IMG/VR virus record: IMGVR_UViG_3300029131_000181
Direction: 5' to 3' (one strand)
DNA length: 64,000 nt
Origin: a virus
Position numbers and translations under genes: made by a program
The notes under the pieces: model-generated
Seen by the model: the letters and a program-made list of their open reading frames with translations, nothing else
Told to the model about the DNA's origin: nothing
The model's database searches: none
Shown here: piece by piece, positions 4,985-60,408 of the stretch
Layout of the letters: the number at the start of each line of letters is the position of its first letter
How positions within the stretch are numbered: the first letter of the stretch is position 1

Positions 4985-5002
4985 TTTTTCATGCCCTTTC
5001 TG

Positions 5003-11017: not shown

Positions 11018-11026
11018 AGCTATTTC

Positions 11027-11800
11027 TTAGTCTGTGCGGGTGTATCCGTGGTCAGCTAACCATTTATGTACTTCATTCGTGACGTCCAATGTATCGATGG
11101 AATAGCTGTTAACTCCCAGTTTGCCATTGGAAAGATTCATGCCGATATTATAAATGAGCTTGTGGCCTTTCATTTTGCCGATGGTCGTTGTGCTTCCTGC
11201 GGCGAATGTTTTGACTCCGACGCCGAGTTCCGAGTTATTCTCGTAGTCCAGCTCTTTGTAAGTAAAATTGTCTTGTACAAGAATCAGTTTTTTGAAAATC
11301 TGATGACTCTGCAAGATGCCATTATAAATGGAAAGGCAGTTTTGCCAATCGGCTTCAAAATCAATCCAGTTCCCGAATGTGGAAGCTGTCAATGGAGCAT
11401 TAGGACTCTGGTTGATAGCCGCTGCCTCTTGAAGCAGCAGTTTCTTAGGTGTTTTGTATTCCGCTACCGGATAGTTAATTTCGCCCTTGCACAGTATTTT
11501 CGCAAATGCTTTGACGGCAAGCTTACCAAAGATAACGCAGAAGCATCCGCAGAAACCAAAAAATGCGCCAAGCAGATAGAATACAAGTGTTGCTGTATGG
11601 ATGCTTTCGGGGTCGTATCTCTGCGCTGATGCCTCCGAAATAGCAAGGCCAATTGGAATCAGCAGCAAGATAATGCCGAAAATTATAAAGGCGATTCCCA
11701 TTGTTACCCACATCTGACCCGTACCTGCCGGGGTCGCATATTTCAGTGCTCTTTTCCGTTCTTTCTCAGACGGAATCATCTTATCCTTTTTGGCTGCCAT
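11027..11800 (-). CDS. membrane protein
   Basis: 257 aa with RBS AAAAGGAGGAGG. Two or three TM segments in the N-terminal third. Confidence 0.7.
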   Translation of the reverse strand: MAAKKDKMIPSEKERKRALKYATPAGTGQMWVTMGIAFIIFGIILLLIPIGLAISEASAQRYDPESIHTATLVFYLLGAFFGFCGCFCVIFGKLAVKAFAKILCKGEINYPVAEYKTPKKLLLQEAAAINQSPNAPLTASTFGNWIDFEADWQNCLSIYNGILQSHQIFKKLILVQDNFTYKELDYENNSELGVGVKTFAAGSTTTIGKMKGHKLIYNIGMNLSNGKLGVNSYSIDTLDVTNEVHKWLADHGYTRTD

Positions 11801-14577: not shown

Positions 14578-14760
14578 CGGACTTCCAACTTTTCACGGGT
14601 TGCCCCGTTACTCAGTATGGATTTCTGCTTCATAGAGCGAGCTTACCGCAAGCCGCAGCTCTTGATAGAGGCTCGCTCTCCACAGACTTTAAGATTCGGT
14701 CGTCCTGACCGTACTGTTCGCCTGTGGTTATGAGGCGGCTGGCGTAGCCAGCATGTCCAT
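14578..14760 (-). ncRNA. TnpB omega RNA / right-end region (extent approximate)
   Basis: GC-rich nested hairpins overlapping and following the tnpB 3' end (GAGAGCGAGCC...GGCTCGCTCTA, CGGGGCAACCCG). By analogy to characterised TnpB loci. Confidence 0.5.
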
Positions 14761-15837
14761 TCCTTTCTTTAGAATGTTTTCTGCTGCATTTTTATCCCTA
14801 TCGTGTGATGTGTTACATTTCGGACAGACCCAATGCCGAACATTGAGGTTTTTTACCTCTTTGTTTTGGTAGCCGCAGCAAGAGCAGGTCTGGCTGCTTG
14901 GATAGAAGGTTGGTATTTTTACAACTACTCTTCCTGCCCAACTGGATTTATAATCAAGTTGTCGGAAGAACTCTCCCCAAGAAACATCGGAAATACTTTT
15001 AGCAAGGTTATGATTGCGAACCATACCATTTACATTGAGGTCTTCTACACAGATGATTTGGTTTTCTTTCACCAGTGTAGATGACAACTTGTGTAGGGCA
15101 TCTTTTCGCTTATTGGTCACTTTTTCGTGGCAGCAAGCCACCTTGATACGTTGCTTCTCCCAGTTGGCAGAACCTTTCTTTTTGCGTGACAGCTTTTTCT
15201 GCTCACGCTTTAGTTTAGCTTCCGCTTTCTGAAGATATTTATTGTTTGGATATTCTTTTCCATTGCTGTCAACAGCAAAAGATTTGATGCCAACATCTAA
15301 ACCGATGACGGTATCTTTAACCGGAAGCGGCATTACTTCTACTTTGCAAAGAATACTTACATAGTATTTGCCGCTTGCTGAGCGACGGATTGTTGCCTTA
15401 CAGATGCGTCCCTCAATGTTGCGACTCTTACGATAACGCATCTTCCCAAGTGTCGGAAGCTGAATGTACTTATCGTCAACTTTAATGCTTTTTGCTTTTG
15501 TAGTTGTATAGCTTTCTTCTCCCCGTTTTCGTTTGAATTGGGGGAACCCTTTACCGTCTTCGAAAAAGCCTTTATAGGCATTATTTAACTGACGACAGCT
15601 ATATTTGAGTGCTTGACTATCTACTTCAGCAAGCCAAGGAAGATAAGTTTTCATCTGAGGAAGCAGATTTTGTGTATCAATATAGCTCATACTTTCACCG
15701 CGCCGTTGATAAGCTTTTATACGCCTATCTAGCATAGAGTTATATACAAAACGGCAGCAGCCGAGCGTTTTATTGATTTTGACTTTCTGTTCTTCTGTTG
15801 GCTCTAGCCGAAATTTATAGCCTTTATGTACTTTCAA
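14728..15837 (-). CDS. tnpB: TnpB (OrfB) RNA-guided nuclease
   Basis: [18 protein letters not shown]-terminus, RuvC motifs ([26 protein letters not shown]) and zinc ribbon CSCCG..CPKCN. TTG start with AGGAGG RBS. Confidence 0.95.
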
Positions 15838-17283: not shown

Positions 17284-18807
17284 TCAGGCAGCCATCTTCG
17301 CTGCGGTTTTGCCCTTCGGACCCTTCTTCCGTGCATTGGCTTCAAGCTCCTTCTTGTTGGTATCATACCAAACCTCGAACTCCTTGAAGTTGTTCAACGC
17401 CCAAATCTCAGGAGAAGCCTTGCGACCGTAAGTTTCTTCCAACAGGTGGATAACTTTGCGGCCAACTTCTTCCATGATTTCGGCATCGTATTTGCCGCCA
17501 CCGCAGTAAAACCCTTCAGGCATAATAATGTCGTATTTAGGGTCAAGAACTTCAAGCCCCGGCTCCAAAACGCGAATGCCTTTGTAGCCAGCTTTGCGTA
17601 CAGCTTCAAATTTGAAGCGGTCCTTTTCGGCAGCATCTGCGTGCGGATATTTTCCATTATACTCATAAATGAGTCTCTGGATATGGTCCACGAAGTCTAA
17701 TCCCAAAAGACTATTTTCGCCCAAGATGTTTCGAACATCAAAGAAGGGGTTGGCAATTCCGTTTTCACCGGCAAATGCCAACATGGGACGTGTGTAAAAC
17801 CACTCCGGCTTGGAAATGGCATTGATTCTTCGCATTTTGCAGTCGTAGCATCCAGTAAGACCGTTGTTCACAGAACGAACAATATTGTTAATTGCAGCTT
17901 CGAATTCTTGCCCGCAATCACGGCATTTGAAGAAGGCTTTTTTGTTGCTTTGAACAGTTACTTCTGAAGCAGAAAGCTTGTTTTTACTACTCCACATGGA
18001 GGCTGCTTTCGGACATTGCGACGCAAGGTCATTGATGCCGGGAACAACCCTCCGACCTACGCAAACTAGGCATCCAGTGTTGCCGTTTTTTACAGCACAA
18101 ACAACATCTCCAATTATGGCTTTGAACTCTTGCCCACAATCCGGGCACACAAAGAAAGCTTTTTTCCCGCTTTTAGCTGTGACTTCTGAAGCGGAAAGCT
18201 TATTTTTATTACTCCACATAGCGGCTGCTTCTGGGCACTGTGACGCAAGGTCATTGATGCCAGGGGCAACTCTTAGTCCTCTGCAAACAGGGCAACCTGT
18301 GTTTCCGTTACTTACAGAATAGACAACGTGTTCGATTTTGGCTTCAAATTCTTCCCCGCAGTCCGGGCATACGAATATCGCCTTTTTGTTGCATTTGACA
18401 GCAATTTCCGAGGCAGACTTTTTGTTTTTGTTACTCCACATAGCTGCAATTTCCGGGTATTTCGACGCAAGGTCGTTGATGCCGGGGATAATCTTTCTTC
18501 CTGCGCAAACAGAGCAACCCGTGAATCCCTTGTCTACAGAACGAACAACATTAAAGATTCTGCTTTCAAATTCCTGCCCGCAATCAGGACACACAAAAGT
18601 GAGTTTTTTATTGCTTCCAGTAGTAACTTCAAAGGCAAGTTTCTTATCTTTTTCGCTCAGCATTGCAGCTACTTTTGGGCAAGCAACAGCAAGGCAATTT
18701 TTCTTAACCACTTCATACGGCATCTCAATGCCAAGAGCCGGAATAGGAGCGCAAGAAGCGCAGTTGCAAGAGTTAGCGTGCATCATAATTTTCATGTTAG
18801 TATTCAT
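17284..18807 (-). CDS. zinc-ribbon repeat protein with C-terminal Vsr/DUF559-like domain
   Basis: Trimmed to MNTNMKIMMH (AAAGGAG RBS). Four 74-aa repeats of the form PGINDLAS..P..AAMWS.KNK.SASEV......FF.CPDCGQEF......V......GNTGC.VC. C-terminal LDFVDH..IYEYNG..H resembles the Vsr-like nuclease core. Confidence 0.75.
   Translation of the reverse strand: MNTNMKIMMHANSCNCASCAPIPALGIEMPYEVVKKNCLAVACPKVAAMLSEKDKKLAFEVTTGSNKKLTFVCPDCGQEFESRIFNVVRSVDKGFTGCSVCAGRKIIPGINDLASKYPEIAAMWSNKNKKSASEIAVKCNKKAIFVCPDCGEEFEAKIEHVVYSVSNGNTGCPVCRGLRVAPGINDLASQCPEAAAMWSNKNKLSASEVTAKSGKKAFFVCPDCGQEFKAIIGDVVCAVKNGNTGCLVCVGRRVVPGINDLASQCPKAASMWSSKNKLSASEVTVQSNKKAFFKCRDCGQEFEAAINNIVRSVNNGLTGCYDCKMRRINAISKPEWFYTRPMLAFAGENGIANPFFDVRNILGENSLLGLDFVDHIQRLIYEYNGKYPHADAAEKDRFKFEAVRKAGYKGIRVLEPGLEVLDPKYDIIMPEGFYCGGGKYDAEIMEEVGRKVIHLLEETYGRKASPEIWALNNFKEFEVWYDTNKKELEANARKKGPKGKTAAKMAA
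17790..18681 (-). repeat. 4 x 222-bp in-frame tandem repeat inside the CDS
   Basis: ACTCCACA landmark recurs at 17989, 18211 and 18433 (period 222). Limits approximate. Confidence 0.8.
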
Positions 18808-18927
18808 GATAGATTTCTCCTTTGTTATCAATAAAAATAAAAAAGCAGCCACCCTTCCCTCTTTTGAGGGCAAAAGCGACTGCTTTACGTTCAATGGGTA
18901 TTGAGTTGTTATTCATGAAGAATTGCT

Positions 18928-19113
18928 TCACTCGTCCAGCATAACCTGCAAACGGGCGTTGAATTCCTTCATGTCGGCGCTTTCCTCGGCTGCAGCAAGG
19001 ACACGCGGATAAATTTCCGGATTCATGCTCTTCAGCATGTTCAGAGTAGAAAGAAGCAGAGGGTTGGTGATAGTCATAGTAAGCATCTCCTTGTTATTCA
19101 TAGTAATGTTCAA
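18928..19113 (-). CDS. hypothetical small protein
   Basis: 61-aa ORF whose stop-proximal region is followed by the next gene. The upstream gene overlaps by 4 nt. Confidence 0.45.
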   Translation of the reverse strand: MNITMNNKEMLTMTITNPLLLSTLNMLKSMNPEIYPRVLAAAEESADMKEFNARLQVMLDE

Positions 19114-19952
19114 ACGTTGGTATTCGTGCGATGGCCTTTCAGCGTGCCCTTGTTGAACTGTGTCAAACGGGCGTGCTTCAGAACAAATCCGTCTTCGAAT
19201 TGAACGTCAACGGCGTTTGTGCTGATGATGCGAATGATGGTTGCTTTCGAGCCATCATTCATGGTCTTGGTCATAGGTCCGCTATACTCGACCTTAAAAT
19301 CGAAAGGAAGCGGCTTATGCTTGGTGCAGCAGGGACAAGAAGAACTGCCGTTATTGATGCAGTGGACAAGAGAATTCACGTGAGTGACGTATTCTTCTCC
19401 GCAATCCGGGCATACAATGACGACCTTCTTGCAGCTATTGGCACTTACTTCACGCGGGGAGAAAGCGTTTTTGCTGCTCCACATTTTTGCCACGGCAGGA
19501 GATGTGGTTGCCAAGTCATTGGTTCCGGGAACGACTTTCATGCCACGGCATACGGGGCAAGTGAAGGTTCCATTCTCGATGTCTTTGACCAAAGAGATGA
19601 TTTTTGTTGTGTACTCTGCATGACAATCAGGGCATACAACAATCACCTTTTCGGGACTGTCACAGCGAACTTCGTCGGGATGAATCGTGTTTTTAGGACT
19701 CCACATAGCTGCAATTTTGGGATACTTGGTAGCCAAATCATTGACTCCGGGAACAAGCTTTTCGCTATGGGTTTCTTCGGCTTTGAATGCCGTAGTTACC
19801 TTACGGTTTTTGACCGTTTTGAATCGGCAGACAGGGCAGGCAGTTACGCCACGCTGCTTAGCTCTAACAAGGTTTGCCTCGTAGGTTGTGTATTTGCAAC
19901 CGCAATCGGGGCAGATGGTGATGACTTTTTCGTTCATGTTAATGTTATTCAT
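19110..19952 (-). CDS. zinc-ribbon repeat protein (paralog of 17284-18807)
   Basis: Trimmed to MNNINMNEKVITICPDCG. Three CPDC..CPVC treble-clef-like units with VPG.NDLAT linkers. Weak RBS. Confidence 0.65.
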   Translation of the reverse strand: MNNINMNEKVITICPDCGCKYTTYEANLVRAKQRGVTACPVCRFKTVKNRKVTTAFKAEETHSEKLVPGVNDLATKYPKIAAMWSPKNTIHPDEVRCDSPEKVIVVCPDCHAEYTTKIISLVKDIENGTFTCPVCRGMKVVPGTNDLATTSPAVAKMWSSKNAFSPREVSANSCKKVVIVCPDCGEEYVTHVNSLVHCINNGSSSCPCCTKHKPLPFDFKVEYSGPMTKTMNDGSKATIIRIISTNAVDVQFEDGFVLKHARLTQFNKGTLKGHRTNTNV

Positions 19953-20008
19953 GATAGTTCCGGGTGCTGCTCTTGATGCAATCTCCACAGCGGGTCGGTC
20001 GCTTCTGC

Positions 20009-20044
20009 AAAACAAAAAGGACAACCTCAAAATGAGGCTGTCCT
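20009..20044 (-). terminator. leader hairpin + U-run between promoter copy 7 and gene
   Basis: Minus strand AGGACAGCC-loop-GGTTGTCCTTTTTGTTTT. Confidence 0.6.
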
Positions 20045-20100
20045 TGCAAAAGCGGAATGTTAAAAATAAATTGGTAAGTGGTATCTTTGATACAACATCT

Positions 20101-20128
20101 ATCATAGCCATCTCGCACACATTGTCAA
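20101..20128 (-). promoter_or_regulatory. motif-class promoter, copy 7
   Basis: TTGACA-ATGTGTGCGAGATGGC-TATGAT. Confidence 0.55.
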
Positions 20129-20129
20129 A

Positions 20130-20169
20130 CAAAAAAAGACCCTGCCCGCATTTTGCTGCGAGCAGGGTT
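20130..20169 (-). terminator. rho-independent terminator
   Basis: Minus strand AACCCTGCTCGCAGCAAAATGCGGGCAGGGTCTTTTTTT, after gene 20189-20509. Confidence 0.75.
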
Positions 20170-20188
20170 TGCTTTTGCACTGTTGTGC

Positions 20189-24844: not shown

Positions 24845-25981
24845 TTACATATCCGACTTCGCCGCATTACACTTCTTGCACAGCATCTGCAGATTGTCAT
24901 CAGTGGTATGTCCGCCCTTGCTCCAAGGAATGATGTGGTCGCCTTCCATATCCTCAAAGGCGTACTCGGTGTTGATGCCATTTGCAACGCACAAGGGGCA
25001 CTTGTGACCCTGCCGCTCATAGGCGCGGAGTTTCTGCGACTCAGTAAATGCACGAAGGGACAGATGCTTTTCGTCGCGCCAAGTGCGGTCAGAGAGGATG
25101 AACGGGACAATGCCTGCCTTCTTGGTCACGTCATCATCCAGCACGAGTTTCTTGATATCAGCGTCCAGAGCGTTGCTATTATACTGCTTTGCATGGTACT
25201 TGTTGTAGAGTAGTCCCCATGCCTGTGTATCCGTAATTCCCTTCCGCTTGGTCGGGAACAACATTTTAGCCCAGTTGATTACAGACTGGAAGTAAAGCCA
25301 GAGGTCATTGGCGTCCTCGTCATGCTGGTGAATCGCCATGTACATCTGCCCGGATTCCAGACCATCACGGTCAGCAATCCACGCCAGTGCCTTTTCCAGC
25401 AACTCCTGCCGAATCGGGTTACCTTTCAGGTATCCGTCAGCCATCTTCGCAGCAACACAGTTGCGTTTCGAGAAGTAGTTCTTGGCATCGGCCAGCCACG
25501 GTCCTGTATAAGTAGCGTTCAGCAGCTCCTGCGGAGTCAACACCTCACCGGCGATGTTGATGCGCTTGAACCATTCCAGTTTCTCGGCTTCGGAGCCTTC
25601 ACAGATATTCACGGTCAACTCGTAGTCCAGAATTTTCTGTTTTTCCTCATCTGTCAAGTTCTGGAAGAACTTGTCGTTGCCGTTGATTTTGACGGGGAAA
25701 TCCTTGTTGACATACTGTGCAATGGAAATTGTCCGCTGTTGTCCATCGAGAACCTCGTAGGTATCTGGACCGGTCTTGGACCAGTACATGAGGTTCAACG
25801 GGAATCCGTTCATTACCGAATCAATGACGGCTGCACGCTGTTTATCGGAGAAGCAAAAATTTCTTTGGTAGCTTGGCCTAATCGTGAGGCGATTGTTGTA
25901 CCCATATACGCCACTGTCTCCGTCATCCGAATAGTTCTCTACAAGGTCGGATACCTTGATTTTGGTTTCTGTGATTTTCAT
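24845..25981 (-). CDS. DUF262 (GmrSD N-terminal-like) + HNH endonuclease fusion
   Basis: IRPSYQRNF..EVLDGQQRTISI is the DUF262 hallmark. C-terminal HKCPLC..GDHIIPWSKGGHTTDDNLQMLCKKCNAAK is an HNH motif. ATGA overlap with the upstream gene. Confidence 0.85.
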   Translation of the reverse strand: MKITETKIKVSDLVENYSDDGDSGVYGYNNRLTIRPSYQRNFCFSDKQRAAVIDSVMNGFPLNLMYWSKTGPDTYEVLDGQQRTISIAQYVNKDFPVKINGNDKFFQNLTDEEKQKILDYELTVNICEGSEAEKLEWFKRINIAGEVLTPQELLNATYTGPWLADAKNYFSKRNCVAAKMADGYLKGNPIRQELLEKALAWIADRDGLESGQMYMAIHQHDEDANDLWLYFQSVINWAKMLFPTKRKGITDTQAWGLLYNKYHAKQYNSNALDADIKKLVLDDDVTKKAGIVPFILSDRTWRDEKHLSLRAFTESQKLRAYERQGHKCPLCVANGINTEYAFEDMEGDHIIPWSKGGHTTDDNLQMLCKKCNAAKSDM

Positions 25982-27923: not shown

Positions 27924-27959
27924 AATAAAAAATCCAGCACCGAATTACTCAGCACTGGA
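27924..27959 (-). terminator. hairpin + U-run directly before the methyltransferase RBS
   Basis: Minus strand TCCAGTGC-loop-GCTGGATTTTTTATTGGGAG. Overlaps the stop of the upstream gene. Confidence 0.5.
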
Positions 27960-29813
27960 TGTATTTTCCGTATTACAATGACCGCATGATGTTTTCTTGT
28001 TTTCTACAAGACTTTGGGTTATCGCAAAGCATTCGTTTCCGCAATCACATTGACATTTCCATCGAGCATGACCGTTTTGGCTTCCTGCTCTCTCAATGAC
28101 CTTTAGCTTACCAAAGTGCATATTAGCTAAATCGTAAGTTCTTCCTTTTTTGACGAACTTATCGCGTGATGGATTTGCTTTCAAAAAGGCATCTGCTTCC
28201 TCTTCTGTCATGCTTTCGTATTCATTGGCAAATAACCAATGATATCCTCCGGCAACTGTACGTAGCTTGTTGCAGCAGTTCAAGATAGGCGAACCGCCGC
28301 TAATCCCGTATTTAAGAGAAGCCTCTTTTGCTGTAGAAAATCTCTCTTTTGTTTCAACGCAAATCACACTCTTGAAGTGTTTTTGTTTATAGCATTCAGG
28401 GCAGTTATGCCCGTATACTCTATCGGCTATTATCATCTTGTAGGAATGACCGTTTTTGCATTTCCACCAGCATTTTTCTGCAGACCCGGATGAGAAATAT
28501 TCGGGCTTCAAATTCTTGTTTTTTTCGTAATCCCATTCAGCAACAATTTCAGGATGTTCTGTAGCAAGGTTGTTCTTTTCGTTCCGTCTTCTTTTGCCTG
28601 TTGTACAAACAGGACATGTTGCGTTTTCTTTTGCTCTGCCATTGATGGGTGCTTCCCATTTATGCCCGCACTTAGAGCAAATCCAATGAACCATTTCTGA
28701 GCTAGATGATGACACCATCATCGGGTCAATGCCTACATTCAGTTCGTAGTCCCATTCTTTCAGGAGTTCCGGATGCCGTCCGCCCATACTTCGTTCAGCT
28801 TTGTAATCTTTGTATTGACGATAGATGTCTTTTGAATCCTTTTGTGTATCAATGTTAGGTTCAGAAACGCCAAGCATCTCTAAGCATTGGCGAATTGCTG
28901 CGTCGAGCGTTGCGTGCCCTCTATTGTTTTCTCTGATGATATTCTCGCTATTACGAATTTCCTGAAGCCCATGCTCGCGAATACGAATTATCCGAATTCC
29001 ATTCTGCTTGCATTTTTCGGACTTTTCTTCGTCATTTTTCACTCTTTTCTCATCAGAATGGTATCGAACACCATCGTATTCTACTGCAGTGCGAATGGAG
29101 GGGATGTAAATGTCCAGCTCTTTTCCAATAACTTTCTTGTTTCCAATAACAGCCTCTGAAAAATACTTTTTTGCATAATACGCTACTGCTTGTTCTTGGA
29201 ACGAGGTCTGTCCTTTATCGATAGTGCTGCATATCGGGCAACTCTTGATACGCTGGATGTAATGATATACGCTTGCCTGCCATTCCGTGCCACAAGCAGA
29301 GCATTTCCACCATACAACAATATTGCTTCCTTGTGTCAGCATACTGACATCTACGTCCTTATTTTTTGCAAAGTCATAGTCTTGCATAGCTTCTGCATTA
29401 TCTACAAGCATTTTCGAAGCTTCGGTAATGTGTTTGCAACAACCGCAAGACTTCACTTTTCCCCGCAGCAAAGAAGAGCGATAAGCAACAAATTCTTTTC
29501 CGCAGCTACACATACAGTTATAACGAATGTTTCTATGCCCCGTGCTTCCAATCGCATCTTCTGCCAAAGAAATAACTTTGATACCGTTGTGTTCTTCGCC
29601 AACCAAATCCTGGTATGTACGTTTACGGTCTTTACCTCGGCAGTCTTTACACTTTAACCCTTTCAAGAGCGCGTCGATACCAATTATCATTGTGTTTCCG
29701 CAGCAGTTACATTTCACCAAATAGGTATCTGCTTTTGAATTAGAGCCGGGGATAGTTTCGAAAACTGTTAAATCTCCGTATGTTTTGCCTGTTCTATTTA
29801 TTTTCGCCGCCAT
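27945..29813 (-). CDS. mosaic zinc-ribbon / Vsr-like endonuclease / NUMOD-like HTH protein (homing-endonuclease-like)
   Basis: 622 aa. CxxC ribbons throughout. KELDIYIPSIRTAVEYDGVRYH is a Vsr/DUF559-type core. HPELLKEWDY..WICSKCGHKW is a DUF4379-like ribbon. FSTAKEASLKYGISGGSPILNCC..GGYHW is a NUMOD/IENR-like HTH. Confidence 0.75.
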   Translation of the reverse strand: MAAKINRTGKTYGDLTVFETIPGSNSKADTYLVKCNCCGNTMIIGIDALLKGLKCKDCRGKDRKRTYQDLVGEEHNGIKVISLAEDAIGSTGHRNIRYNCMCSCGKEFVAYRSSLLRGKVKSCGCCKHITEASKMLVDNAEAMQDYDFAKNKDVDVSMLTQGSNIVVWWKCSACGTEWQASVYHYIQRIKSCPICSTIDKGQTSFQEQAVAYYAKKYFSEAVIGNKKVIGKELDIYIPSIRTAVEYDGVRYHSDEKRVKNDEEKSEKCKQNGIRIIRIREHGLQEIRNSENIIRENNRGHATLDAAIRQCLEMLGVSEPNIDTQKDSKDIYRQYKDYKAERSMGGRHPELLKEWDYELNVGIDPMMVSSSSSEMVHWICSKCGHKWEAPINGRAKENATCPVCTTGKRRRNEKNNLATEHPEIVAEWDYEKNKNLKPEYFSSGSAEKCWWKCKNGHSYKMIIADRVYGHNCPECYKQKHFKSVICVETKERFSTAKEASLKYGISGGSPILNCCNKLRTVAGGYHWLFANEYESMTEEEADAFLKANPSRDKFVKKGRTYDLANMHFGKLKVIERAGSQNGHARWKCQCDCGNECFAITQSLVENKKTSCGHCNTENTSSAE

Positions 29814-31969: not shown

Positions 31970-32042
31970 CTTCAGTCATGAGTTAGGCGACTTTTCTCTT
32001 GATTTGTAATCTCACATATGGTATAATAATTATGGTGATATT

Positions 32043-32462
32043 ATGCAAATGTTCGTCAATAATAACCTGTCATATGGTAGAGGTTATGTTTACAATATTC
32101 AATATCATATTGTGTGGTGTACAAAGTACAGAAAACCAGTTTTGATAAACGAAACAGAACAATCGCTAAAAGAGTCTCTGCAGCAGACCGCCGAAACCAT
32201 AAAAATCAATATTGTAGAAATGGAATGCATGCCTGACCATATTCACCTGTTGGTGGAGTGTTCACCGCAGCATTTTATCCCGGATATGATAAAAGTGCTT
32301 AAAGGCAACAGTGCAAGAGCTATTTTTATCGCCAATCCGGACTTGAAGAAGCAACTTTGGGGCGGGCATCTTTGGAACCCAAGCTACTTTATTGCAACCG
32401 TCAGTGATAACACGCGCAAACAAGTACAAGAATACATTGCATCTCAAAAAATAAGAAACTGA
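32043..32462 (+). CDS. tnpA: IS200/IS605 Y1 (HUH) transposase TnpA
   Basis: YNIQYHIVWCTKYRKPVL, the PDHIHLLV HUH motif and C-terminal YIASQ tyrosine. Confidence 0.95.
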   Translation: MQMFVNNNLSYGRGYVYNIQYHIVWCTKYRKPVLINETEQSLKESLQQTAETIKINIVEMECMPDHIHLLVECSPQHFIPDMIKVLKGNSARAIFIANPDLKKQLWGGHLWNPSYFIATVSDNTRKQVQEYIASQKIRN

Positions 32463-32480
32463 TGAAAGGGGGGCTTCGCA

Positions 32481-33812
32481 GTGAAAATCACTTCCAGCTA
32501 TGCTGTGGAAATCAAAAAGCAGAAAATGTTCGACAATACTATAAAGATTTATCGCGAAGCCGTTTCTTTCTTGATTGGTTGTTTTAACAAAGAATGGGAT
32601 TCTATTCAAAAAGTAGAGGGTGCCAAATCTCGAAAGAGTTTTGCCGAGAAGTTAATTCATACTACAAAATACAGCACTGCTAAATATGATTTCGATGCCA
32701 AGTTTTATAAGTTCCCTAGTTACCTGCGCAGAGCGGCTATTCAAGCAGCACTCGGCTCTGTAAGCAGCTACTACAGTAGCCATAAGAACTGGGAAGCAAA
32801 CGGCAAGGTTGACAGGGAGCCAAAACTTCAATGCGATAGATTTTGCTTCCCGGCTTTTTATAAGACCGTTATGTATGAGGAAAGCAACAAACCAAACCAG
32901 TGCTATCTGAAGCTGTATAAAAACAATGACTGGGTTTGGGTTCCTATCGCAATGCGTGCCACCGATGTCAAATACATCACGAAATACTGGTCACATTGCG
33001 AAAAGAGTGCTCCTGCACTCGAAAAGAAGTACGGGAAGTATTTCCTACGCTTTGCCTTCGAGGAAGAGGTAAAACTCTCCGAAACTGAAATTCAAGACAG
33101 GCGTATCTGCGCTGTAGACCTTGGTCTCAATACTGACGCCGTGTGCAGCATCATGACTGCCGATGGAACTGTCCTTGCAAGAAAATTTATCAATTTTGCA
33201 AGTGAAAAAGACCATCTGTATCATGTGCTCAACCGTATTAAGCGTAAGCAAAGAGAACATGGACCTAAGAGTGCTGCTGCTATGTGGCGTTACGCCAAAG
33301 CCTTGAATAACGATATAGCGAAAAAGGTTGCTGCTGCGATTACTGAATTTGCTGTGCTTTATTCTGTAGATGTGATTGTTTTTGAACATTTGTCATTTAC
33401 AGGCAAAAAGCACGGTGGCAGTAAGGCACAGAAGCTGTCGATGTGGAAGCGTAATTCCATACAGGATTATGTGGAACACAAGGCGCACCGCTGCGGTATC
33501 CGGATTTCGCGTATCTGTGCTTGGGGGACAAGCAAACTCGCCTTTGATGGCAGTGGTGCTCTCAAGCGTGATGAAACCAATCGTGCCCTTGCAACGTTTG
33601 CAAGCGGCAAACAATACAACTGCGACCTAAGTGCGAGCTACAATATTGGCGCTCGCTACTTTGTCAGAGAGTTGCTAAAACCCTTGCCAGCGATGGTAAG
33701 GTCTCAGCTTTCGGCTAATGTTCCGGATGTTGAGCGTAGAATCCAAGTTACACTTGCCACGCTTAAAGTTCTGTATCCTGAGCTTAAAAAACTCAGTACA
33801 CAGGCAGCGTAA
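32481..33812 (+). CDS. tnpB: TnpB-like RuvC nuclease lacking the zinc-finger cysteines
   Basis: 443 aa with GTG start. RuvC triad candidates are CAVDLGLNTD, VIVFEHL and NCDLSASYNIGARYF. The usual CxxC..CxxC segment is replaced by WGTSKLAFDGSGALKRDETNRALATFASGKQY. Confidence 0.8.
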   Translation: MKITSSYAVEIKKQKMFDNTIKIYREAVSFLIGCFNKEWDSIQKVEGAKSRKSFAEKLIHTTKYSTAKYDFDAKFYKFPSYLRRAAIQAALGSVSSYYSSHKNWEANGKVDREPKLQCDRFCFPAFYKTVMYEESNKPNQCYLKLYKNNDWVWVPIAMRATDVKYITKYWSHCEKSAPALEKKYGKYFLRFAFEEEVKLSETEIQDRRICAVDLGLNTDAVCSIMTADGTVLARKFINFASEKDHLYHVLNRIKRKQREHGPKSAAAMWRYAKALNNDIAKKVAAAITEFAVLYSVDVIVFEHLSFTGKKHGGSKAQKLSMWKRNSIQDYVEHKAHRCGIRISRICAWGTSKLAFDGSGALKRDETNRALATFASGKQYNCDLSASYNIGARYFVRELLKPLPAMVRSQLSANVPDVERRIQVTLATLKVLYPELKKLSTQAA

Positions 33813-33985
33813 GATGTACAGATGCTAACTGAGTTATTAGTTTTCTTGCGGTGATGGCTCCCGTCTGGACGCCTGAGCTGAGGGATTACCGTATCTTTCG
33901 TTAGAACGCCGCTACCCATAAAAGGAGCGGGAAGCCCGCGACTTTAGTCGTGGGAGGATTCACTGTAAGGCTTCCGTTATCGCTT
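33813..33985 (+). ncRNA. TnpB omega RNA / right-end region (extent approximate)
   Basis: GC-rich hairpins, for example GGGAAGCCCGCGACTTTAGTCGTGGGAGG, immediately 3' of tnpB. Confidence 0.45.
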
Positions 33986-41600: not shown

Positions 41601-42239
41601 TCATAGTCCTTTGACAAAATTCGGGTCGTAGTGGGACAGGACTTCCTCGTTCAAGCTGTATTCGCAGTTGATAGTCGTTGCGTCATCCACATACATGCCT
41701 CGGTTTGCGTAGTATATTCCATCAATATAAATGGCGAACATGACGGACGGCATCAGTGCCTTTTCATTCACTGCGTAAATCAGGTATTCATCCAGATTAT
41801 CCTTGACCACCGCGCTCTTATTGATTTGGGCGATTTGCTGTCCGCCAAGAAATACAGGGCAGCATACTCCTTCTTTTCCAAAACCAATTTTGTAGCTCTG
41901 GTATTCCTCGCCATACAGCTGCATGGCGATAGAATTGTATCCTTGGAGGAATCCGGTTTTTGTATGGATGACGGAAATCTCGCCTACCCTGCGGTTGTTC
42001 TCACAGATAGCAAAAGGGTGTCTCAGAATATCTTTCGTGTTGATGCCGCGCATGTACGCCCTTGCGTCAGCAGCTGGCATGTATTGCAGCAGGAACTTGG
42101 AATCATTCAGCCGGATGCCATAACCTTGCCGCAGCACTTTCGGAATATAGTGTGCCTGCCCGATAACGGCCTTGCCTTTCACGATATCGAAGGTGAACTC
42201 ATATCCTTTCGATTTGGTTTGCTTCACAATCCATTGCAA
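41601..42239 (-). CDS. hypothetical protein
   Basis: 212 aa. TTG start 10 nt after GGAGG. Confidence 0.6.
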   Translation of the reverse strand: MQWIVKQTKSKGYEFTFDIVKGKAVIGQAHYIPKVLRQGYGIRLNDSKFLLQYMPAADARAYMRGINTKDILRHPFAICENNRRVGEISVIHTKTGFLQGYNSIAMQLYGEEYQSYKIGFGKEGVCCPVFLGGQQIAQINKSAVVKDNLDEYLIYAVNEKALMPSVMFAIYIDGIYYANRGMYVDDATTINCEYSLNEEVLSHYDPNFVKGL

Positions 42240-42667
42240 AACTCAATCGCCTCCTTTTGCCTTCTCACTCGCTGGATAACCTTGTAAATACCAGGAACCG
42301 AGAGCTGATATTTTTCGGATAGTTTCTGCACCGGCACGCCGCTCTCGTATTCTCGAAAGATATTCTCATTGCGCGGTCTTTGTCTAATTTTGATGCGCTC
42401 ATTTCTACGGTTTTCAGTCAGGCCCGCATCGTTGGCAACCATGCTGCAATATCCTTCTGCCACGTTGAATTTTGCAATCATTTCCTTGAGAGGGACACTG
42501 GCTTTGTACGCAGCAAGAATTTCGGCCTTTCTAGCATCCTCTACCTGCGCCAACTGAATTCTGGCCTCCTGTTTCGCGTCGTCTAACGCTCGATAGCATG
42601 TACGGACGCTCAACCTGTATTTTGCGGCAAGCTCCTCAATGGAATAGCCGTTGCCGTAGTCTTTCAT
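42224..42667 (-). CDS. multi-HTH repeat DNA-binding protein (fourth paralog)
   Basis: YSIEELAAKYRLSVRTCYRAL and VPVQKLSEKYQLSVPGIYKVI are the same unit type as genes 1-1481. The start is uncertain: ATG 42667 has no RBS, and an AAGGAG lies at about 42735. Confidence 0.6.
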   Translation of the reverse strand: MKDYGNGYSIEELAAKYRLSVRTCYRALDDAKQEARIQLAQVEDARKAEILAAYKASVPLKEMIAKFNVAEGYCSMVANDAGLTENRRNERIKIRQRPRNENIFREYESGVPVQKLSEKYQLSVPGIYKVIQRVRRQKEAIEFCNGL

Positions 42668-48053: not shown

Positions 48054-48146
48054 AATTTTTGTTTCTCCACATTCAGTTTTTTAGCTGCTAAGATTCTCAT
48101 CCCTACTGCATCGGTATCGCCCCATCTCACAATCGCTCTGTCTTTA

Positions 48147-52320: not shown

Positions 52321-53000
52321 TCATTGGGGATTCACTATCGGCGTTGCTGTTCTTGCTTGTGGGTCAATGGAATAAGTGGCGTCAATGCATACCGTATTGC
52401 TCCCTGTGTCTTTTCTCACAAAAACTGGCATTACAATTTCTGTGATGGATGTTGGGTCATTGCCATTCTCTGCATAGGTTTCGGCATATTCCTGCCAACG
52501 GATATCCACGTAGGCATTAGAATGTGGTTCCAGCAATGTTGTTCCTCCCGGGGTACACTCAAAGCCATTGATGGAGCCTTTATCCAGAATGACATCGATA
52601 CGGTCGTTGGTTTTGTTTTCGTAGTAGGCTTTTGCCGTATAGCCCATGAAACTATCAGAATAAAATCCGCAAACGACCATGCTGCAGGCATTATTGTCGA
52701 ACAGCACAATATCCGTGGGCTGAATCTCGTGTTTTGGTTCTGTCGCGTTCTCTTCACCTTTCGGATAAATCACAAAGTCATCATCGACAGGGTCATCACG
52801 ATTCGACACATCCCATTCTGCTTCATCATAGACATCGATGTGAAGTTTGACGGTATCGATGTCTTGCGGTTTCACTCCATAGATTTCCAGTCCTGCTTTA
52901 TCCCACGAAACGACCTCGGTGGTTTTCACTCCTGGTCCAATTTCCGGGAACCAACTGGTATCTGCCGGGATTCCATAAAATTTGTGCGTAGGGCACACCG
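52321..53000 (-). pseudogene. lipoprotein gene, C-terminal part (split by the iscB element)
   Basis: Aligns with residues ~175-393 of paralog 55365-56444 (VVYPKGEENATEPKHE.QPTD, GFECTPG/GFECFPE). Confidence 0.85.
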
Positions 53001-53106
53001 TCTACAGTCGTTTGCGACTTAGGCGGTGAGGAATGCGCTAACCAAGATTTGATTTGAGGTAAACTTAGTTAACGCAAATACCCTGCTACTCCTTTCTTTG
53101 AATGAT

Positions 53107-54504
53107 TTAAGATACTTTTTCCCATGCGGGATGTATGGAATCTGCTGCTTTTACAATTTTGAGTTTTTTAAGGCTCGCGGATTTTTGACCGTTTTTTGCG
53201 GGTGCTTTGAATTCTACATTTACGGCACCCTTTTTATTGGTATGAGTGCCATGCACAATGAGAACTTTTCCGTTGAGAGAGACTAAATCACCCGGATTAA
53301 GGTTTACCTTTTTGCGTAATAGAGCGCGATGCCCTGCGTATGTCCTCTTGCCACGATATTTGTGCAGGTTTTCCGAATCCTTTTTATGGCTGCGGCTGAT
53401 TCTACCGTTGAAGAGTTTTTTTCCGGTAGCTATTTCTCCTGTACGAATGTCAATGTAGCGAGAATCATAAAACTTTTCAAGGATGCGATTATTACGCCTT
53501 ACCTTTTCATAATGTTCAAACGTACAGCGGCAGTTTGGATGAAACTCGCCCATTGCATATGCATCATTATTATGACTCTTTTCAAGATGAAGCGCGATAC
53601 GTTTTTCTTTTGTCATTGCGCCATAAGTGACGGTGACAAAATCTTTTCCAAAAGCAGCATAGAGTTCATTGACAATTTGCCACCTAACGGTGTTCATAAA
53701 AGCCGCACCGGAAAGGTCGGCAAACTTTACATTTTCTCCGAAGCCATAAAGCTTACCGCTTTTTTGGTGATTGGCAGGCGTATGGCACTTTTCGCATACC
53801 GTTAGAAGTTCGTCCAGACTGTTGCCGTGACGACCTTTCCAGTAGAACATATGATGCATATGTAAAATCGCACCTTCTGTAGCTTTACGCCCACAAACCT
53901 TACAGACATAGTTATCGCGGTAAAATACCGCTTCCCGCAAGGTTGCCAAGTTGTAGCGGGGACCTTTCTGGTAGTCTACACCTTCCGGTTTTGATTCGCC
54001 TTTCTGGATGGCTTGCAGCAACATTGTGTCGAAAGAACCAACCTCAACCGTTGCATGAGTAATGGGCATTACCGCACAATACATCTTAACAACGTTGACA
54101 TTGAGTTCTTTCTTATGTCTCAAAGATGGAGCAAGCCAACTCTCGCCGCGTTTGCGATTATCGAAACGCGGTTTACGGTAGCGCAGTCTGTTTCTTCGGG
54201 AACGACGCATCTTGCGACAATCATCGTGATGTTCCTTCTCATCCTGTAATGTATCATACTGCGCAGATACATACTCGTGAGATTGACTTTTCACACTGAT
54301 GCCGATGTAGTTGTAGCCAACATCCTCACAGATTTCGATGGGTTGTGTGTTTGTTTTGCTGTCATACAGCAGCTGGATGGTAAAAGGATGATGCTTAACG
54401 ATTTTTGCTTTTCCGTCTTTCAAGAGGCGGCGTACCTTGCCAAGACGGAAGGTAGGCATTAAGCGTTCACCACTGTTGCTGAGAACGCAAACGCAAGTGC
54501 TCAT
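53107..54504 (-). CDS. iscB: IscB RNA-guided nuclease
   Basis: N-terminal PLMP-type motif (GERLMP), RuvC-I (EDVGYNYIGISV), arginine-rich bridge helix (RRSRRNRLRYRKPRFDNR), HNH (CKVCG..HMHH..N..CEKCH), RuvC-II/III (EKSHNNDAYAM) and a C-terminal beta-rich domain. Confidence 0.9.
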   Translation of the reverse strand: MSTCVCVLSNSGERLMPTFRLGKVRRLLKDGKAKIVKHHPFTIQLLYDSKTNTQPIEICEDVGYNYIGISVKSQSHEYVSAQYDTLQDEKEHHDDCRKMRRSRRNRLRYRKPRFDNRKRGESWLAPSLRHKKELNVNVVKMYCAVMPITHATVEVGSFDTMLLQAIQKGESKPEGVDYQKGPRYNLATLREAVFYRDNYVCKVCGRKATEGAILHMHHMFYWKGRHGNSLDELLTVCEKCHTPANHQKSGKLYGFGENVKFADLSGAAFMNTVRWQIVNELYAAFGKDFVTVTYGAMTKEKRIALHLEKSHNNDAYAMGEFHPNCRCTFEHYEKVRRNNRILEKFYDSRYIDIRTGEIATGKKLFNGRISRSHKKDSENLHKYRGKRTYAGHRALLRKKVNLNPGDLVSLNGKVLIVHGTHTNKKGAVNVEFKAPAKNGQKSASLKKLKIVKAADSIHPAWEKVS

Positions 54505-54853
54505 GCAAGATACTCCTTTCGTTAAATAGTAATGAAACTATAAGTCAGGGCTTGCGCCCCGTGGTCCACTTCGCCAATGTTATGCACTGTTTTAGCCTTT
54601 CGGCATGGCTTACGCACTTCTCCTACCCTTAGAGATGTTTAACGTAATATGTATCAACGGCTTGCACCATTGACACATACGCTGCCCGCAGAGCCCGACA
54701 CTTGTGGAGCATATCGGGGTGCCTATATTATTAGTACACAACGTAGTTTTCCCCACTGCCGGAGCAATGGGCTTAGGCTAATCAACTGGGCTTACAGGTT
54801 GCCCCGCAAGCCCCGTCTATAACCGGTGAACCGGTTTAGGCGGGGTTGTTGAC
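54505..54853 (-). ncRNA. IscB omega RNA (HEARO-type) upstream of iscB
   Basis: ~350 nt, ORF-free and GC-rich between the left end and the iscB RBS. Multiple stems with GCAA/GAAA loops (GGGGCGCAAGCCC, GCCGAAAGGC). Confidence 0.7.
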
Positions 54854-55220
54854 TCAAGGACGAGCTGCTTGTGATAGCGCAAAGAGTTTTGTCATCCGTT
54901 TTATTTTGGAAATCAACGGTCCAGTAGTAGCCATAGCTGTCATCATAACCCACGTTCTGCAAGATGATGGTACAGGTATCGTTGTCGGCAATCGTCTGTG
55001 GCTGGAAACTCTCATCGAACTGGATGTCGGGTTCAGCCGTTGCATTATCGGCAGCACTACTTGCAGTACTCGTTGAAGAGTCGCTGGTGCTTTCCTCGGG
55101 GGATGCAGCATCAGATGTAGCTGCACTGCTGGCAGCAGTACTGGTAGTGTTAGAGCTGCTACAGGCGGCCAGGGAAAGGGCAAGCAAAGCCGAAAGTGCT
55201 AATGATACAACCTTTTTCAT
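54854..55220 (-). pseudogene. lipoprotein gene, N-terminal part (split by the iscB element)
   Basis: MKKVVSLALSALLALSLAACSSS lipobox. Colinear with the paralog up to ..NKTDDKTL. Confidence 0.85.
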
Positions 55221-55364
55221 GATTTTCTCCTTTTTTCTTTGTATAAGGCTATTATACATCAAAAGCGCTTCGGCATTTTACTTTTCCAGAACGAAACCTT
55301 TATTTACAAAGTTGCAAACGAAGCCTGGGAAAGTTAATAATTTTAATCGCAGGAGGGCGTCAAA

Positions 55365-57111: not shown

Positions 57112-60100
57112 TTATCCAAATAACTCATCCAGCTTTTCGCTCAACGTCCCATCCTTTGCATAAGGCAATGCATCGCACATACGAAAGTTATACTGCTTTC
57201 CGTTATGCTCCTCAGAGAACCCAAGAATATAGTTGGTTGCAATGCGATAAATAATTTCGGACGGAGCCAGACCGTAGACCTGCTTTTCAAAGATGTGTTC
57301 GAGCCGCTCCTTGGAGTTCGGGAACGCAGCTTTCATGCCTTCGCTCTGGTACAGACGCTTCACGATTTCGGTAATGTACAGGCCCGATTTCATGTACAGG
57401 TCAATAAAGGTCTTGTCCGGGTCATTAAAGCATCCGGGATTTTCTTCTTCCAAAAGCGATACCATCTTTGCCACGGTTGCTTTCGGGGTAAAGATTTGGT
57501 TCGTGCGCTGCGGCGGAATGTAGTCGAAGATGTCCTTTTCGTTCGCCGGGTCAAAATAGTTTGCCAGTTCACGCTTTAACCGCAGGAACTCTTTGATGGA
57601 ATCATCAAACACGACTTCATCAAACAGCTTCCCGTCAAAGTGCTTCGTTTCGCCTGTGGCGGTATCCTTGTAATCACCGCCATCGCGCAGGAAACGGAAC
57701 TGCTCCAGCGTGATGCTGGTGACTTCTTGGAAAACTTCATCGGGAACGATTTGGTCGAAGTTGGCAAGAGTGGTATCCTCTGTGCCATAGGCCATCAGAA
57801 ATGACGGTATCGTGCGGGCAAAACCGCGTAGATGGTCGCGGATGGTATCTTCCACATCGTTCTTTTTGCGTTCCTCGATTTGTGTCTCATAGCTGCGGAC
57901 AGTCTCTTTGGCGGCATCTTCCACGAAGCTGCTGACCGTATCATTCAAAGCTGTTTTCAGCTTTTCAGTAGCCTCTGCCTTTTTCTGGTCGAATTCCTGA
58001 TTGATTTTTGCCTGTTCGTGGGGCGCAGCAGCAGCCAACTGCTCATGGCGTTCTTTTTCGATTTGGTTGGTTTCGATACGATAGTCGCCGTAAGTCCGCG
58101 CCACCAAACGGTCCGCATCCTCGCCCAGCTTCTTCTCTACACGCTTGGCATCCGATGCCTTAATTTCCGAGTCATAATTGGAGGTGGCAGCAGCCACGAT
58201 GGGTTTAACAGCCTGCGCCTTGAAAGCCTCCTGCAACGCTTCCAGCGCCTTATCCTTGGGCTGGTTGTCAACGGCGACTTTATCAATAGCCTGCGTGACC
58301 TGCTCGCTGACAGTCTCATAGATTTTATCGCCAAAAATATCATCGGCCAAACCGATAACATAGCCCTCATCTACTTCGACATCGCCGTTTTCATCAACAT
58401 GGACGCGGTCCAAATCTTCTTTCTTGACTTCCTGCTTTTTCGGTTCGTCCACAGGGGTGAACTTTGTAATAATGTTCACAACCGCCTGCGGAGCACCGAA
58501 GATGTTGGAAATGTTCTGGAACAGATAATTGGACATAAATCCGCGATTCACAACTTCTGTGGAGCGAATCTTTCGCGGAATAGAAAGTACCTTTTCGGCA
58601 TCCAGTTCCACCATTTCGCCGTCTTCATCCTCGCCGATGACCGGGAAGAAGTTCAGCAGTTCCTTGATGTGCTTTTTGCGGGTTTCGGTATCACCGCGAC
58701 CATCGGAAGTGCTGGCATACAGGTCGTTCGCGAACTCCTCAAAAATCATAAGAGTTCGCGCAGGGTCGAAGTCGAAGATATAAGCATTCTCCTTGCGGTA
58801 GAACTTGCCTTTGTCGTGGAACAAGCACGGATTCTGCGCACGGAACGCCGCCTGCATATACAGGGATGCACTCTTGATGCTGCTCAGCATCAGCACAGCA
58901 GTCCATTCTGGAATCGTAACGCCCGTGGTGAGCTGTCCGACAGACAGTGTAATTGTCTTGTCGTTCTGGGCGATAGCCTCGGTCACGCTGTCAAACGCTT
59001 TCTTGGCAGAATCATCATCGTTCAATCTACCGTCACCCACTGCCGCGACGACCTTGTAATCCTTGAAAACAGGATGGTTGTTCAGCTTGCGGGCTAGAGC
59101 CTTGGCGCTGTCCACACGGTTCAGCAGCCAAAGCGTATGCTTTAATTCATCGCGTAATTCCGGTGTGGAGAACGGGAACTTAGTCTGTGTAGTCAGCGCA
59201 TCAAGGAACTTGTCCACAGCGCTGTCATGCACAAAGTTTCCGGCCTGATTGACTGCAAAAAACTCATTTAGGTCAAACGCCCATTCTTCTGTCTCGCCGT
59301 TGATTTCAATGCCCTGCTTCAGTTCATCCCGAACGACCTCGGACATCTGATAGGTGAACATATTGAGCTGCGGCAGATTCGCGTAGGGATTCTGCTCGCT
59401 CTGGTCACCCTGCCAATCGCGTTTTTTCTTCTGCTCGTCGGCATAGGTCCAGTTATAGATGGCGTCCTCTTTGAATTTTTCGCTGGCAATGGCCTTAAAC
59501 GGCGTGCCGGACAGATGCAGCGTAAAGTTGCGGTCAATATGGTCGAACGCCACATCCGTCTTGTAGGTATCTACGCCCTCGTGGGCTTCGTCAATAATCA
59601 GAACATCCCAATGAATGTCATTGACTTCTTTCAGCTTTTCAAATTCACCGCCAAAGTAAATGGAGCCTTTGAGGTCCTGCAAGCTGACGAACTCGATGCA
59701 CTTGTAGTCGTCGTTGTTCAGCATATCCAGATACTGATTGCGGCTCACAACAAAAGGCTTCCCCTGCAGGGAGCTGGTATCGCTCACAAACAGATACCCG
59801 GAATCGGGACCGAGGAACTTCTCGTAGTCGGAATACCACGAGTTTGCAATCGCAGGGCGGTTCGTCACGATAAGGACCGTGTCTGCGTCCATCTGTTTGC
59901 AAAGCTCATAGGCCGTAAGTGTTTTGCCGAAGCGCGGCTTTGCGTTCCAGAGGTATTCACCCTTGGTATGCAGGCGGCTGTAATTCAGCGTTTTCTCTAC
60001 CGCATCCTCCTGCTCCTCACGCAGATTATACGGGGTTGCGGCGGTCAGCGATTGCAAAATACCGCGATTCGCACGGAAATCATAGAAGTGGTTGCGGGAA

Positions 60101-60408
60101 ACAGGCCCCGTCACATGGAACCATTCGTTCTTGGGGTCGTTCTCAATGTTCAGCTTGCGCAGATAGCGGTGGAAATCTTTATCGGTAAATGTATCGCCGG
60201 AGCCATCCTCGAATGTAGCATTGCCGCGCCATTCTTCTTTGTATTCCACATCGGCAGTATGGGTCTGCTGGCTCAATCGCTTGTCTACATCCTGCTCGGT
60301 GTAGCCGATTTTCGTCCAACCGTTATGGCGGGCAATCTCAGGAGTGGTATAGGCATAAATCATCGGAACAACGCGGTCCGTTGTTTTGATGACGATTTTA
60401 GTGCTCAT
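57112..60408 (-). CDS. T5orf172/GIY-YIG-like + SF2 helicase + methyltransferase-N-terminal-like fusion protein
   Basis: N-terminal MIYAYTTPEIARHNGWTKIGYTEQDVDKRLSQQ. Helicase motifs PRFGKTLTAYE and LIIDEAHEG. C-terminal NQIFTPKATVAKMVSLL..FIDLYMKSGLYITEI resembles MTase motifs X/I with no NPPY. Confidence 0.8.
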   Translation of the reverse strand: MSTKIVIKTTDRVVPMIYAYTTPEIARHNGWTKIGYTEQDVDKRLSQQTHTADVEYKEEWRGNATFEDGSGDTFTDKDFHRYLRKLNIENDPKNEWFHVTGPVSRNHFYDFRANRGILQSLTAATPYNLREEQEDAVEKTLNYSRLHTKGEYLWNAKPRFGKTLTAYELCKQMDADTVLIVTNRPAIANSWYSDYEKFLGPDSGYLFVSDTSSLQGKPFVVSRNQYLDMLNNDDYKCIEFVSLQDLKGSIYFGGEFEKLKEVNDIHWDVLIIDEAHEGVDTYKTDVAFDHIDRNFTLHLSGTPFKAIASEKFKEDAIYNWTYADEQKKKRDWQGDQSEQNPYANLPQLNMFTYQMSEVVRDELKQGIEINGETEEWAFDLNEFFAVNQAGNFVHDSAVDKFLDALTTQTKFPFSTPELRDELKHTLWLLNRVDSAKALARKLNNHPVFKDYKVVAAVGDGRLNDDDSAKKAFDSVTEAIAQNDKTITLSVGQLTTGVTIPEWTAVLMLSSIKSASLYMQAAFRAQNPCLFHDKGKFYRKENAYIFDFDPARTLMIFEEFANDLYASTSDGRGDTETRKKHIKELLNFFPVIGEDEDGEMVELDAEKVLSIPRKIRSTEVVNRGFMSNYLFQNISNIFGAPQAVVNIITKFTPVDEPKKQEVKKEDLDRVHVDENGDVEVDEGYVIGLADDIFGDKIYETVSEQVTQAIDKVAVDNQPKDKALEALQEAFKAQAVKPIVAAATSNYDSEIKASDAKRVEKKLGEDADRLVARTYGDYRIETNQIEKERHEQLAAAAPHEQAKINQEFDQKKAEATEKLKTALNDTVSSFVEDAAKETVRSYETQIEERKKNDVEDTIRDHLRGFARTIPSFLMAYGTEDTTLANFDQIVPDEVFQEVTSITLEQFRFLRDGGDYKDTATGETKHFDGKLFDEVVFDDSIKEFLRLKRELANYFDPANEKDIFDYIPPQRTNQIFTPKATVAKMVSLLEEENPGCFNDPDKTFIDLYMKSGLYITEIVKRLYQSEGMKAAFPNSKERLEHIFEKQVYGLAPSEIIYRIATNYILGFSEEHNGKQYNFRMCDALPYAKDGTLSEKLDELFG

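Follow-up and report, generated by a model that had tools for sequence, protein, structure and literature searches.

Gene content of the locus

The window (the whole 64-kb stretch of DNA analysed here) carries an iscB gene and an associated structured RNA inside one of two paralogous lipoprotein genes (Table 1). The interrupted gene encodes a lipoprotein signal (MKKVVSLALSALLALSLAAC) with the lipobox LAAC and its paralog is intact, in agreement with an earlier note on this DNA, in which the insertion was said to split one of two such genes. The element has the same orientation as its host gene, lies directly beside 5'-TTCCAT-3' on the + strand and is the only copy in the window. The window is 99.99% identical to L026, a 77.5-kb human-gut contig with the same insertion. 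Its viral assignment rests on the IMG/VR classification and on PHROG matches to non-structural genes (helicases, nucleases etc.); no structural phage genes were seen in it, and we refer to the genome as phage-like. Large HNH/DUF4379 treble-clef proteins resembling homing endonucleases are encoded at 17284..18894, 19110..20180, 24845..25981 and 27945..29813 (all on the - strand), and a T5orf172-ResIII protein at 57112..60408, so that selfish nucleases are densely packed here.

Table 1. Coordinates of the iscB element, its host gene and a separate tnpA-tnpB element in the window
Feature	Coordinates	Strand	Basis or remark
Whole IscB element, 1,877 bp	52977..54853	-	Empty alleles; ends common to >80 copies elsewhere
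iscB CDS, 465 aa	53107..54504	-	Pfam RRXRR and HNH; aligns to OgeuIscB (7xht/7utn)
Omega RNA scaffold, HEARO-type, 349 nt	54505..54853	-	Rfam RF02033 match covers 54853..54561
Terminal GC hairpin of omega RNA	54561..54546	-	Followed by the iscB ribosome-binding site
Guide segment AGCAGCTCGTCCTTGA, host-gene sequence just outside the element	54854..54869	-	Immediately 5' of HEARO position 1
Target-adjacent motif ATGGAA (core ATGGA); + strand TTCCAT abutting the left end	52971..52976	-	Conservation over 18 sites
Right-end subterminal hairpin, transposase sense	54810..54846	+	Basal stem CCCCGTCTA...TAGGCGGGG; ssDNA fold z = -3.3
Left-end subterminal hairpin, transposase sense	52993..53031	+	Basal stem CACCGTCTA...TAGGCGGTG; ssDNA fold z = -3.5
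Interrupted lipoprotein gene, 5' part (122 codons + 1 nt), co-oriented with the element	54854..55220	-	98.6% identical to L001
Interrupted lipoprotein gene, 3' part	52321..52976	-	Empty-allele match; 340 aa when joined with the 5' part
Intact paralogous lipoprotein gene, 359 aa	55365..56444	-	BLASTP 46% identity, E 2e-105
Separate IS605-type tnpA-tnpB element	roughly 31970..33965	+	End hairpins unrelated to those of the IscB element

Element boundaries and the empty site

The uninterrupted allele was found in three independent contigs (L001, L002 and L003). In each of them the match to window positions 55281..54854 is followed at once by a match from 52976 downward, and the 40+40 nt around the joint (...AGCAGCTCGTCCTTGA|ATGGAATCCCGG...) are identical to the window flanks. 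The filled allele is longer than the empty one by exactly 1,877 bp, and no base is duplicated. Neither a target-site duplication nor terminal inverted repeats were detected in 52977..54853, as is typical of IS200/IS605 elements.

Because the three empty alleles join 54854 to 52976, the element spans 52977..54853 and not 53001..54853, as had been proposed in the earlier note together with an empty site ..TCCTTGA|CGGTGTGC.. and a 348-aa product. That version is almost certainly wrong. Removal of 53001..54853 does leave an open 348-aa frame, as claimed, but the junction is incorrect, the restored protein being 340 aa long, and the supposedly base-precise empty site is displaced by 24 nt at its iscB-distal end. 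Comparison with related genomes, the check that was proposed for this junction, yields a different one at that end in all three contigs. The guide-side boundary at 54853 was correctly placed, in agreement with both the empty alleles and position 1 of the HEARO model (see below).

The protein products point the same way. Searches with the 348-aa reconstruction retrieved many full-length homologues of 333-340 aa, one cluster alone comprising 2,348 member sequences. All homologues read ...CAITSSSSLN-GIPADTSW..., whereas the reconstruction reads ...SSSSL-TVCPTHKFY-GIPADTSW..., with TVCPTHKFY in place of N; the eight extra residues are missing from 12/12 full-length homologues. The corrected 340-aa protein aligns without gaps to P0001, with 333/340 residues (98%) identical. 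Moreover, the 24 nt outside the earlier boundary constitute the element terminus (…GGTGTGCCCTACGCACAAATTTT), and copies inserted at unrelated sites end in the same conserved bases (GTGCCCTACGCACAAATTTT and adjacent positions). These 24 nt are open in frame merely by chance.

The IscB protein

The protein encoded by iscB contains an RRXRR domain (PF14239, 5e-46, residues 5-181) and an HNH domain (22.9 bits against a cut-off of 21.4), and it matches IscB structures in the PDB, including OgeuIscB (7xht/7utn), with E-values of about 3e-32 to 3e-33, the D/E/H/D and HH residues being aligned. In the alignment with OgeuIscB, RuvC residues D61, E154, H311 and D314 fall on its IDPG, LELN and KDHYLDAY motifs. 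The HNH domain (H217/H218, the two CxxC pairs C201/C204 and C237/C240, and N245) is inserted in RuvC, a feature that separates IscB from IsrB, and an arginine-rich bridge helix is also present. In an alignment of 26 sequences (62-91% identity), the RuvC catalytic, HNH and zinc residues do not vary. At the N-terminus the whole clade has RLMP, not PLMP; R14, L15 and M16 are invariant in the same alignment and P17 is conserved in at least 90% of sequences.

Pairwise dN/dS between this iscB and seven other copies is 0.08-0.11. The gene therefore shows no sign of inactivation, since its catalytic residues are present and invariant and dN/dS is this low, and no inactivating substitution was found either on alignment to OgeuIscB or among the 26 homologues. 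The description of iscB as intact-looking, with a PLMP-type motif, RuvC, bridge helix and HNH, is borne out, every RuvC and HNH catalytic residue being kept. As far as can be judged from sequence, iscB is intact and under purifying selection (dN/dS about 0.1).

Omega RNA and guide

The RNA upstream of iscB, predicted in the earlier note as ~350 nt of structured RNA, lies on the same strand as the gene and matches the HEARO model over its whole length (cmscan, RF02033, positions 1-211/211, E 2.7e-13), with model position 1 falling exactly at the element boundary 54853. Agreement with the model is complete in coverage but not in score, which at 70.1 bits is below the gathering score of 83. The low score coincides with three long insertions relative to the model (19, 23 and 77 nt where it has 4, 10 and 37). 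The E-value, the full model coverage and the genomic context are all those of the HEARO family. A family alignment of 36 sequences contains a conserved hairpin with compensatory changes. The long-range pairs returned by RNAalifold for this alignment differ from the HEARO architecture; their columns are invariant, so the alignment cannot choose between the two, and the RNAalifold fold was not relied on. Promoter and terminator scans gave matches at chance level only.

At 349 nt, the omega RNA is a mosaic of length variants: the first variable hairpin belongs to the short type, present in copies of 308-314 nt, and the second to the long type, present in copies of 365-368 nt. This suggests recombination between element variants.

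The guide, which we take to be 16 nt long as in characterised IscBs, is identical to the empty-allele sequence directly 5' of ATGGAA. No second match to AGCAGCTCGTCCTTGA with up to three mismatches was detected in the 64-kb window. The flank just 5' of the RNA scaffold had been proposed as the natural guide, and its position next to HEARO position 1 and its identity to the target of the empty allele support this assignment.

Transposon ends and target-adjacent motif

Subterminal hairpins are present at both ends of the element, both on the + strand and with the common basal stem CCGTCTA/TAGGCGG, another IS200/IS605 trait. They lie 7 nt (right end) and 16 nt (left end) from the boundaries, a geometry resembling that of IS608. 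Within the 64-kb window, the sequence TTAGGCGG is found at 53019 and 54836 only, once per element end. In the omega RNA, the right-end hairpin reappears as its reverse complement, forming the first hairpin.

In the empty allele, ATGGAA stands directly 3' of the target. Flanks were compared over 108 loci, made up of contigs with identical or related IscB, two loci from a Lachnospiraceae MAG and 80 of the 129 related IMG/VR loci. At the 18 distinct sites, the iscB-distal flank reads ATGRA (A 18/18, T 17/18, G 17/18, R 17/18, A 16/18), and no position was conserved on the guide-side flank among 24 distinct flanks. Read on the opposite strand, ATGRA becomes TYCAT, which abuts the left end, as in the IS200/IS605 family, and agrees with the TTCAT of GstIscB. 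The insertion-site context given in the earlier note, CGGTG(T), has to be replaced by ATGGA(A), because the iscB-distal junction lies 24 nt further out.

[quoted passage not shown] Taken together, the ATGRA flank and this layout thus identify 52977 as the left end and 54853 as the right end (+ strand), with iscB antisense to the left-to-right direction, the arrangement of the characterised system.

Transposase candidates

No tnpA gene is located within 52977..54853, as had been noted before; a neighbouring tnpA accompanies about 1.5% of iscB genes (Meers et al., bioRxiv 10.1101/2023.03.14.532601). Elsewhere in the window, a Y1 tnpA at about 32049..32462 (+), 34% identical to the Y1_Tnp of L001 (E 1e-19), adjoins a tnpB-like gene at 32481..33812 (+; 443 aa, PHROG transposase, weak Cas12f1-like TNB). 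As a candidate mobiliser of the IscB element, this tnpA was judged unsupported. Its own element has different end hairpins and TAGGCGG is found only in the IscB element; lacking the hairpin motif at its ends, it is not proposed as a partner. The tnpA-tnpB element of L001 was set aside likewise, its ends being different (CCCACGATTTCAATCGTGGG hairpins).

The latter element (L001 3390..5939; 2.55 kb, with tnpA and a 578-aa tnpB-like gene) occupies the short spacer between the paralogous lipoprotein genes of a genome whose lipoprotein gene is intact. The locus has therefore been struck by two different IS200/IS605 elements. A second tnpB-type gene of the window (14728..15837, -; 369 aa, phrog_506 transposase, E 2e-134) has no tnpA beside it.

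Distribution and sister copies

The family is frequent in IMG/VR viral contigs, where 129 related loci were detected. Related IscB copies (74-93% protein identity) occur in IMG/VR contigs of 23-389 kb, several of which carry two copies, and at least 18 distinct insertion sites are represented. A scan of species-representative genomes retrieved two loci only, both in one Lachnospiraceae MAG, and near-identity searches of phage and plasmid collections gave no match. The exact IscB protein variant of the window was found at this one site only, in three contigs. Copies at other sites differ by dS 0.4-1.1, so their transposition need not be recent.

The flanks of some related IMG/VR copies match the window at 96-99% identity. 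For the copy in L105, which sits exactly between its guide GAATAACAGAAAGGGC and ATGAA, the window contains the precise empty site, GAATAACAGAAAGGGC|ATGAAA, at 4993|4992 (4988..5008, -). The window is filled at the lipoprotein site and empty at the L105 site; related genomes are therefore filled and empty in both directions. A near-match to the L018 guide at window position 48077 was not counted as an empty site, as the flanking motif is absent there.

Several copies are associated with rearrangements. The L030 guide, AAATTCAACGTGGCAG, is found in the window (42472..42457) and is followed there by 218 bp of coding sequence missing from L030 (window 42239..42472, -, compared with L030, L042 and L044). 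The gene downstream of this site starts with TTGCAATGG in the window, where the motif is lacking, and with ATGAAATGG in L030. Considering the missing 218 bp and the changed gene start, the L030 insertion thus goes together with the deletion or replacement of 218 bp. L002 carries an internally deleted derivative (10750..11087), in which the first 8 nt of the element (GTCAACAA) are joined to its last ~338 bp; it is flanked by ATGAAA and adjoins the end of a tnpB-type IS605. The copy in L018 (2690..4528) is flanked on its left as in L001 (…CAGCTAAAAGA; L001 10687..10716) but on its right as at the common L006 site (ATGGACGTCG), suggesting that two copies recombined and so caused a rearrangement. 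The end of the L001 contig falls within an element copy, as expected for a repeat.

Mobility and proposed mechanism

It is very likely that 52977..54853 is a non-autonomous IscB (ISC)-type insertion sequence of the IS200/IS605 family, inserted without a scar in a lipoprotein gene of a gut phage-like genome, and that it operates by the mechanism set out below. Several points count against this: the HEARO score below the gathering score, the restriction of the exact IscB variant to one site, the age of the copies at different sites (dS 0.4-1.1), a viral assignment drawn from IMG/VR and from PHROG matches to non-structural genes, and the lack of a cognate TnpA among the tnpA genes of the window and of L001, whose elements have unrelated ends. 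Old copies, a single site for this variant and no cognate TnpA would also fit a fixed, immobile relic, in which the phage keeps IscB and its RNA for some other purpose, such as a regulatory role or attack on competitors, the lipoprotein guide being incidental; purifying selection would suit domestication equally well. Nevertheless, we regard a relic as improbable, given that both transposon ends and their hairpins are intact, that scarless presence/absence polymorphism exists at two sites, that some contigs hold several copies and that the flanking motif shows the conservation which TnpA-linked targeting would produce.

The mechanism of the insertion sequence is extrapolated from ISGst5 and OgeuIscB to the boundaries, duplication-free joint, iscB, HEARO-type RNA, hairpins and motif observed here. 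Lying outside the element, the guide has to be transcribed as part of the host gene: transcription entering from that gene would produce an omega RNA whose first ~16 nt (AGCAGCUCGUCCUUGA) are host-derived. The IscB-omega RNA complex would recognise the guide sequence only when ATGRA follows, that is, in the element-less allele, which could be generated by TnpA excision or be carried by a sister genome or by one that co-infects. In the filled allele GTCAAC occupies the motif position, and this allele would escape cleavage. Recombinational repair of the cut empty allele from a filled copy would then restore or spread the element, and movement to new sites would need a Y1 TnpA in trans.

A related account, compatible with the insertion-sequence reading, is that the filled/empty polymorphism arose mainly by RNA-guided homing, i.e. 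gene conversion after IscB cleavage, between co-infecting genomes. We see this as possible but doubtful. The family is found in IMG/VR viral contigs of one lineage, with presence or absence varying site by site, and the genome is rich in other homing nucleases; the literature describes OMEGA nucleases as homing endonucleases of a composite kind and reports that TnpB acts as a gene drive in plasmids. However, the first arrival at any site would still require transposition.

Start-codon context of the insertion sites

The insertions show a pattern in their position relative to genes. At 8/17 distinct sites (by a crude ORF criterion), the element lies exactly between the ribosome-binding region and the ATG of a gene, co-oriented with it. 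This arrangement holds for 5.7% of the ATGRA occurrences in the window, giving a binomial p of about 2e-6 for 8/17, a value to be read with the reservation that the sites are not fully independent and that purging of harmful insertions could contribute. At the sites in L006..L106, the ATG of the motif often serves as start codon for the gene that follows, with a Shine-Dalgarno-like sequence in the guide. It is an in-frame internal ATG at three other sites, and the window's own site is out of frame.

One speculative reading, towards which we lean little, is that this IscB family is specialised for large gut phages, with ATGRA doubling as start-codon context and the elements acting as RNA-programmed gene drives during co-infection. 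If so, parking in a transcribed leader would guarantee expression of an externally encoded guide, and the filled and empty sites segregating among related phages would be the substrate of a gene drive in co-infected cells.

Significance and comparison with known systems

The locus supplies a compact IscB (465 aa) together with its natural guide, target and flanking motif as a clean set, backed by real empty alleles, and the ATGRA motif, inferred from 18 natural sites, comes with a ready set of substrates for biochemistry. It also adds a population-level case of IscB elements segregating site by site in human-gut phage-like genomes. The understanding of how IscB elements work is unchanged by it.

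A close likeness is to ISGst5 of Geobacillus stearothermophilus, likewise a non-autonomous IS605-family element whose omega RNA is encoded upstream of iscB with the right end as its limit, whose guide comes from the flank, and which lacks an adjacent tnpA and is co-oriented with the upstream gene. The ISGst5 motif TTCAT and the TYCAT of the present family both stand 5' of the left end. The two differ in setting, ISGst5 residing in a Geobacillus chromosome and the present family in gut IMG/VR viral contigs. A bias towards sharing the orientation of the upstream gene has been reported for IscB elements (Meers et al., bioRxiv 10.1101/2023.03.14.532601), and the orientation of the present element relative to the lipoprotein gene is in line with it.

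Over residues 3-319, OgeuIscB (7utn, 7xht) has the same order of domains and the same catalytic residues (E about 3e-32), and it too has a HEARO-type RNA. It is longer, however (496 against 465 aa); the C-terminal ~145 aa of the window's IscB, which by position would include the region that reads the target-adjacent motif, are left unaligned by phmmer, and the window RNA has three large insertions. The OgeuIscB motif NWRRNA also fits ATGGAA in the window, but was rejected as the family motif, as it does not fit ATGGAC or ATGGAT at sister sites. ATGRA fixes A at position 5 and leaves position 6 free, so the two motifs are not the same.

With HEARO (RF02033) the locus shares a whole-model match starting at the element boundary, positioned and oriented as expected beside an HNH/RuvC open reading frame. 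IS608 and ISDra2 resemble the element in duplication-free insertion by a short motif, in same-strand subterminal hairpins at both ends and in a guide drawn from the right-end flank. They encode TnpA and TnpB, whereas the present element lacks TnpA and encodes an IscB (RuvC and HNH) antisense to the left-to-right direction, with the guide at the 5' end of the RNA. Every feature that defines IscB elements and IS200/IS605 insertion at the sequence level is present, the Rfam gathering score excepted, while RNA-guided cleavage and mobilisation by a Y1 TnpA are predicted; the element is, by these features, an ordinary member of the known family of IscB-omega RNA insertion sequences.
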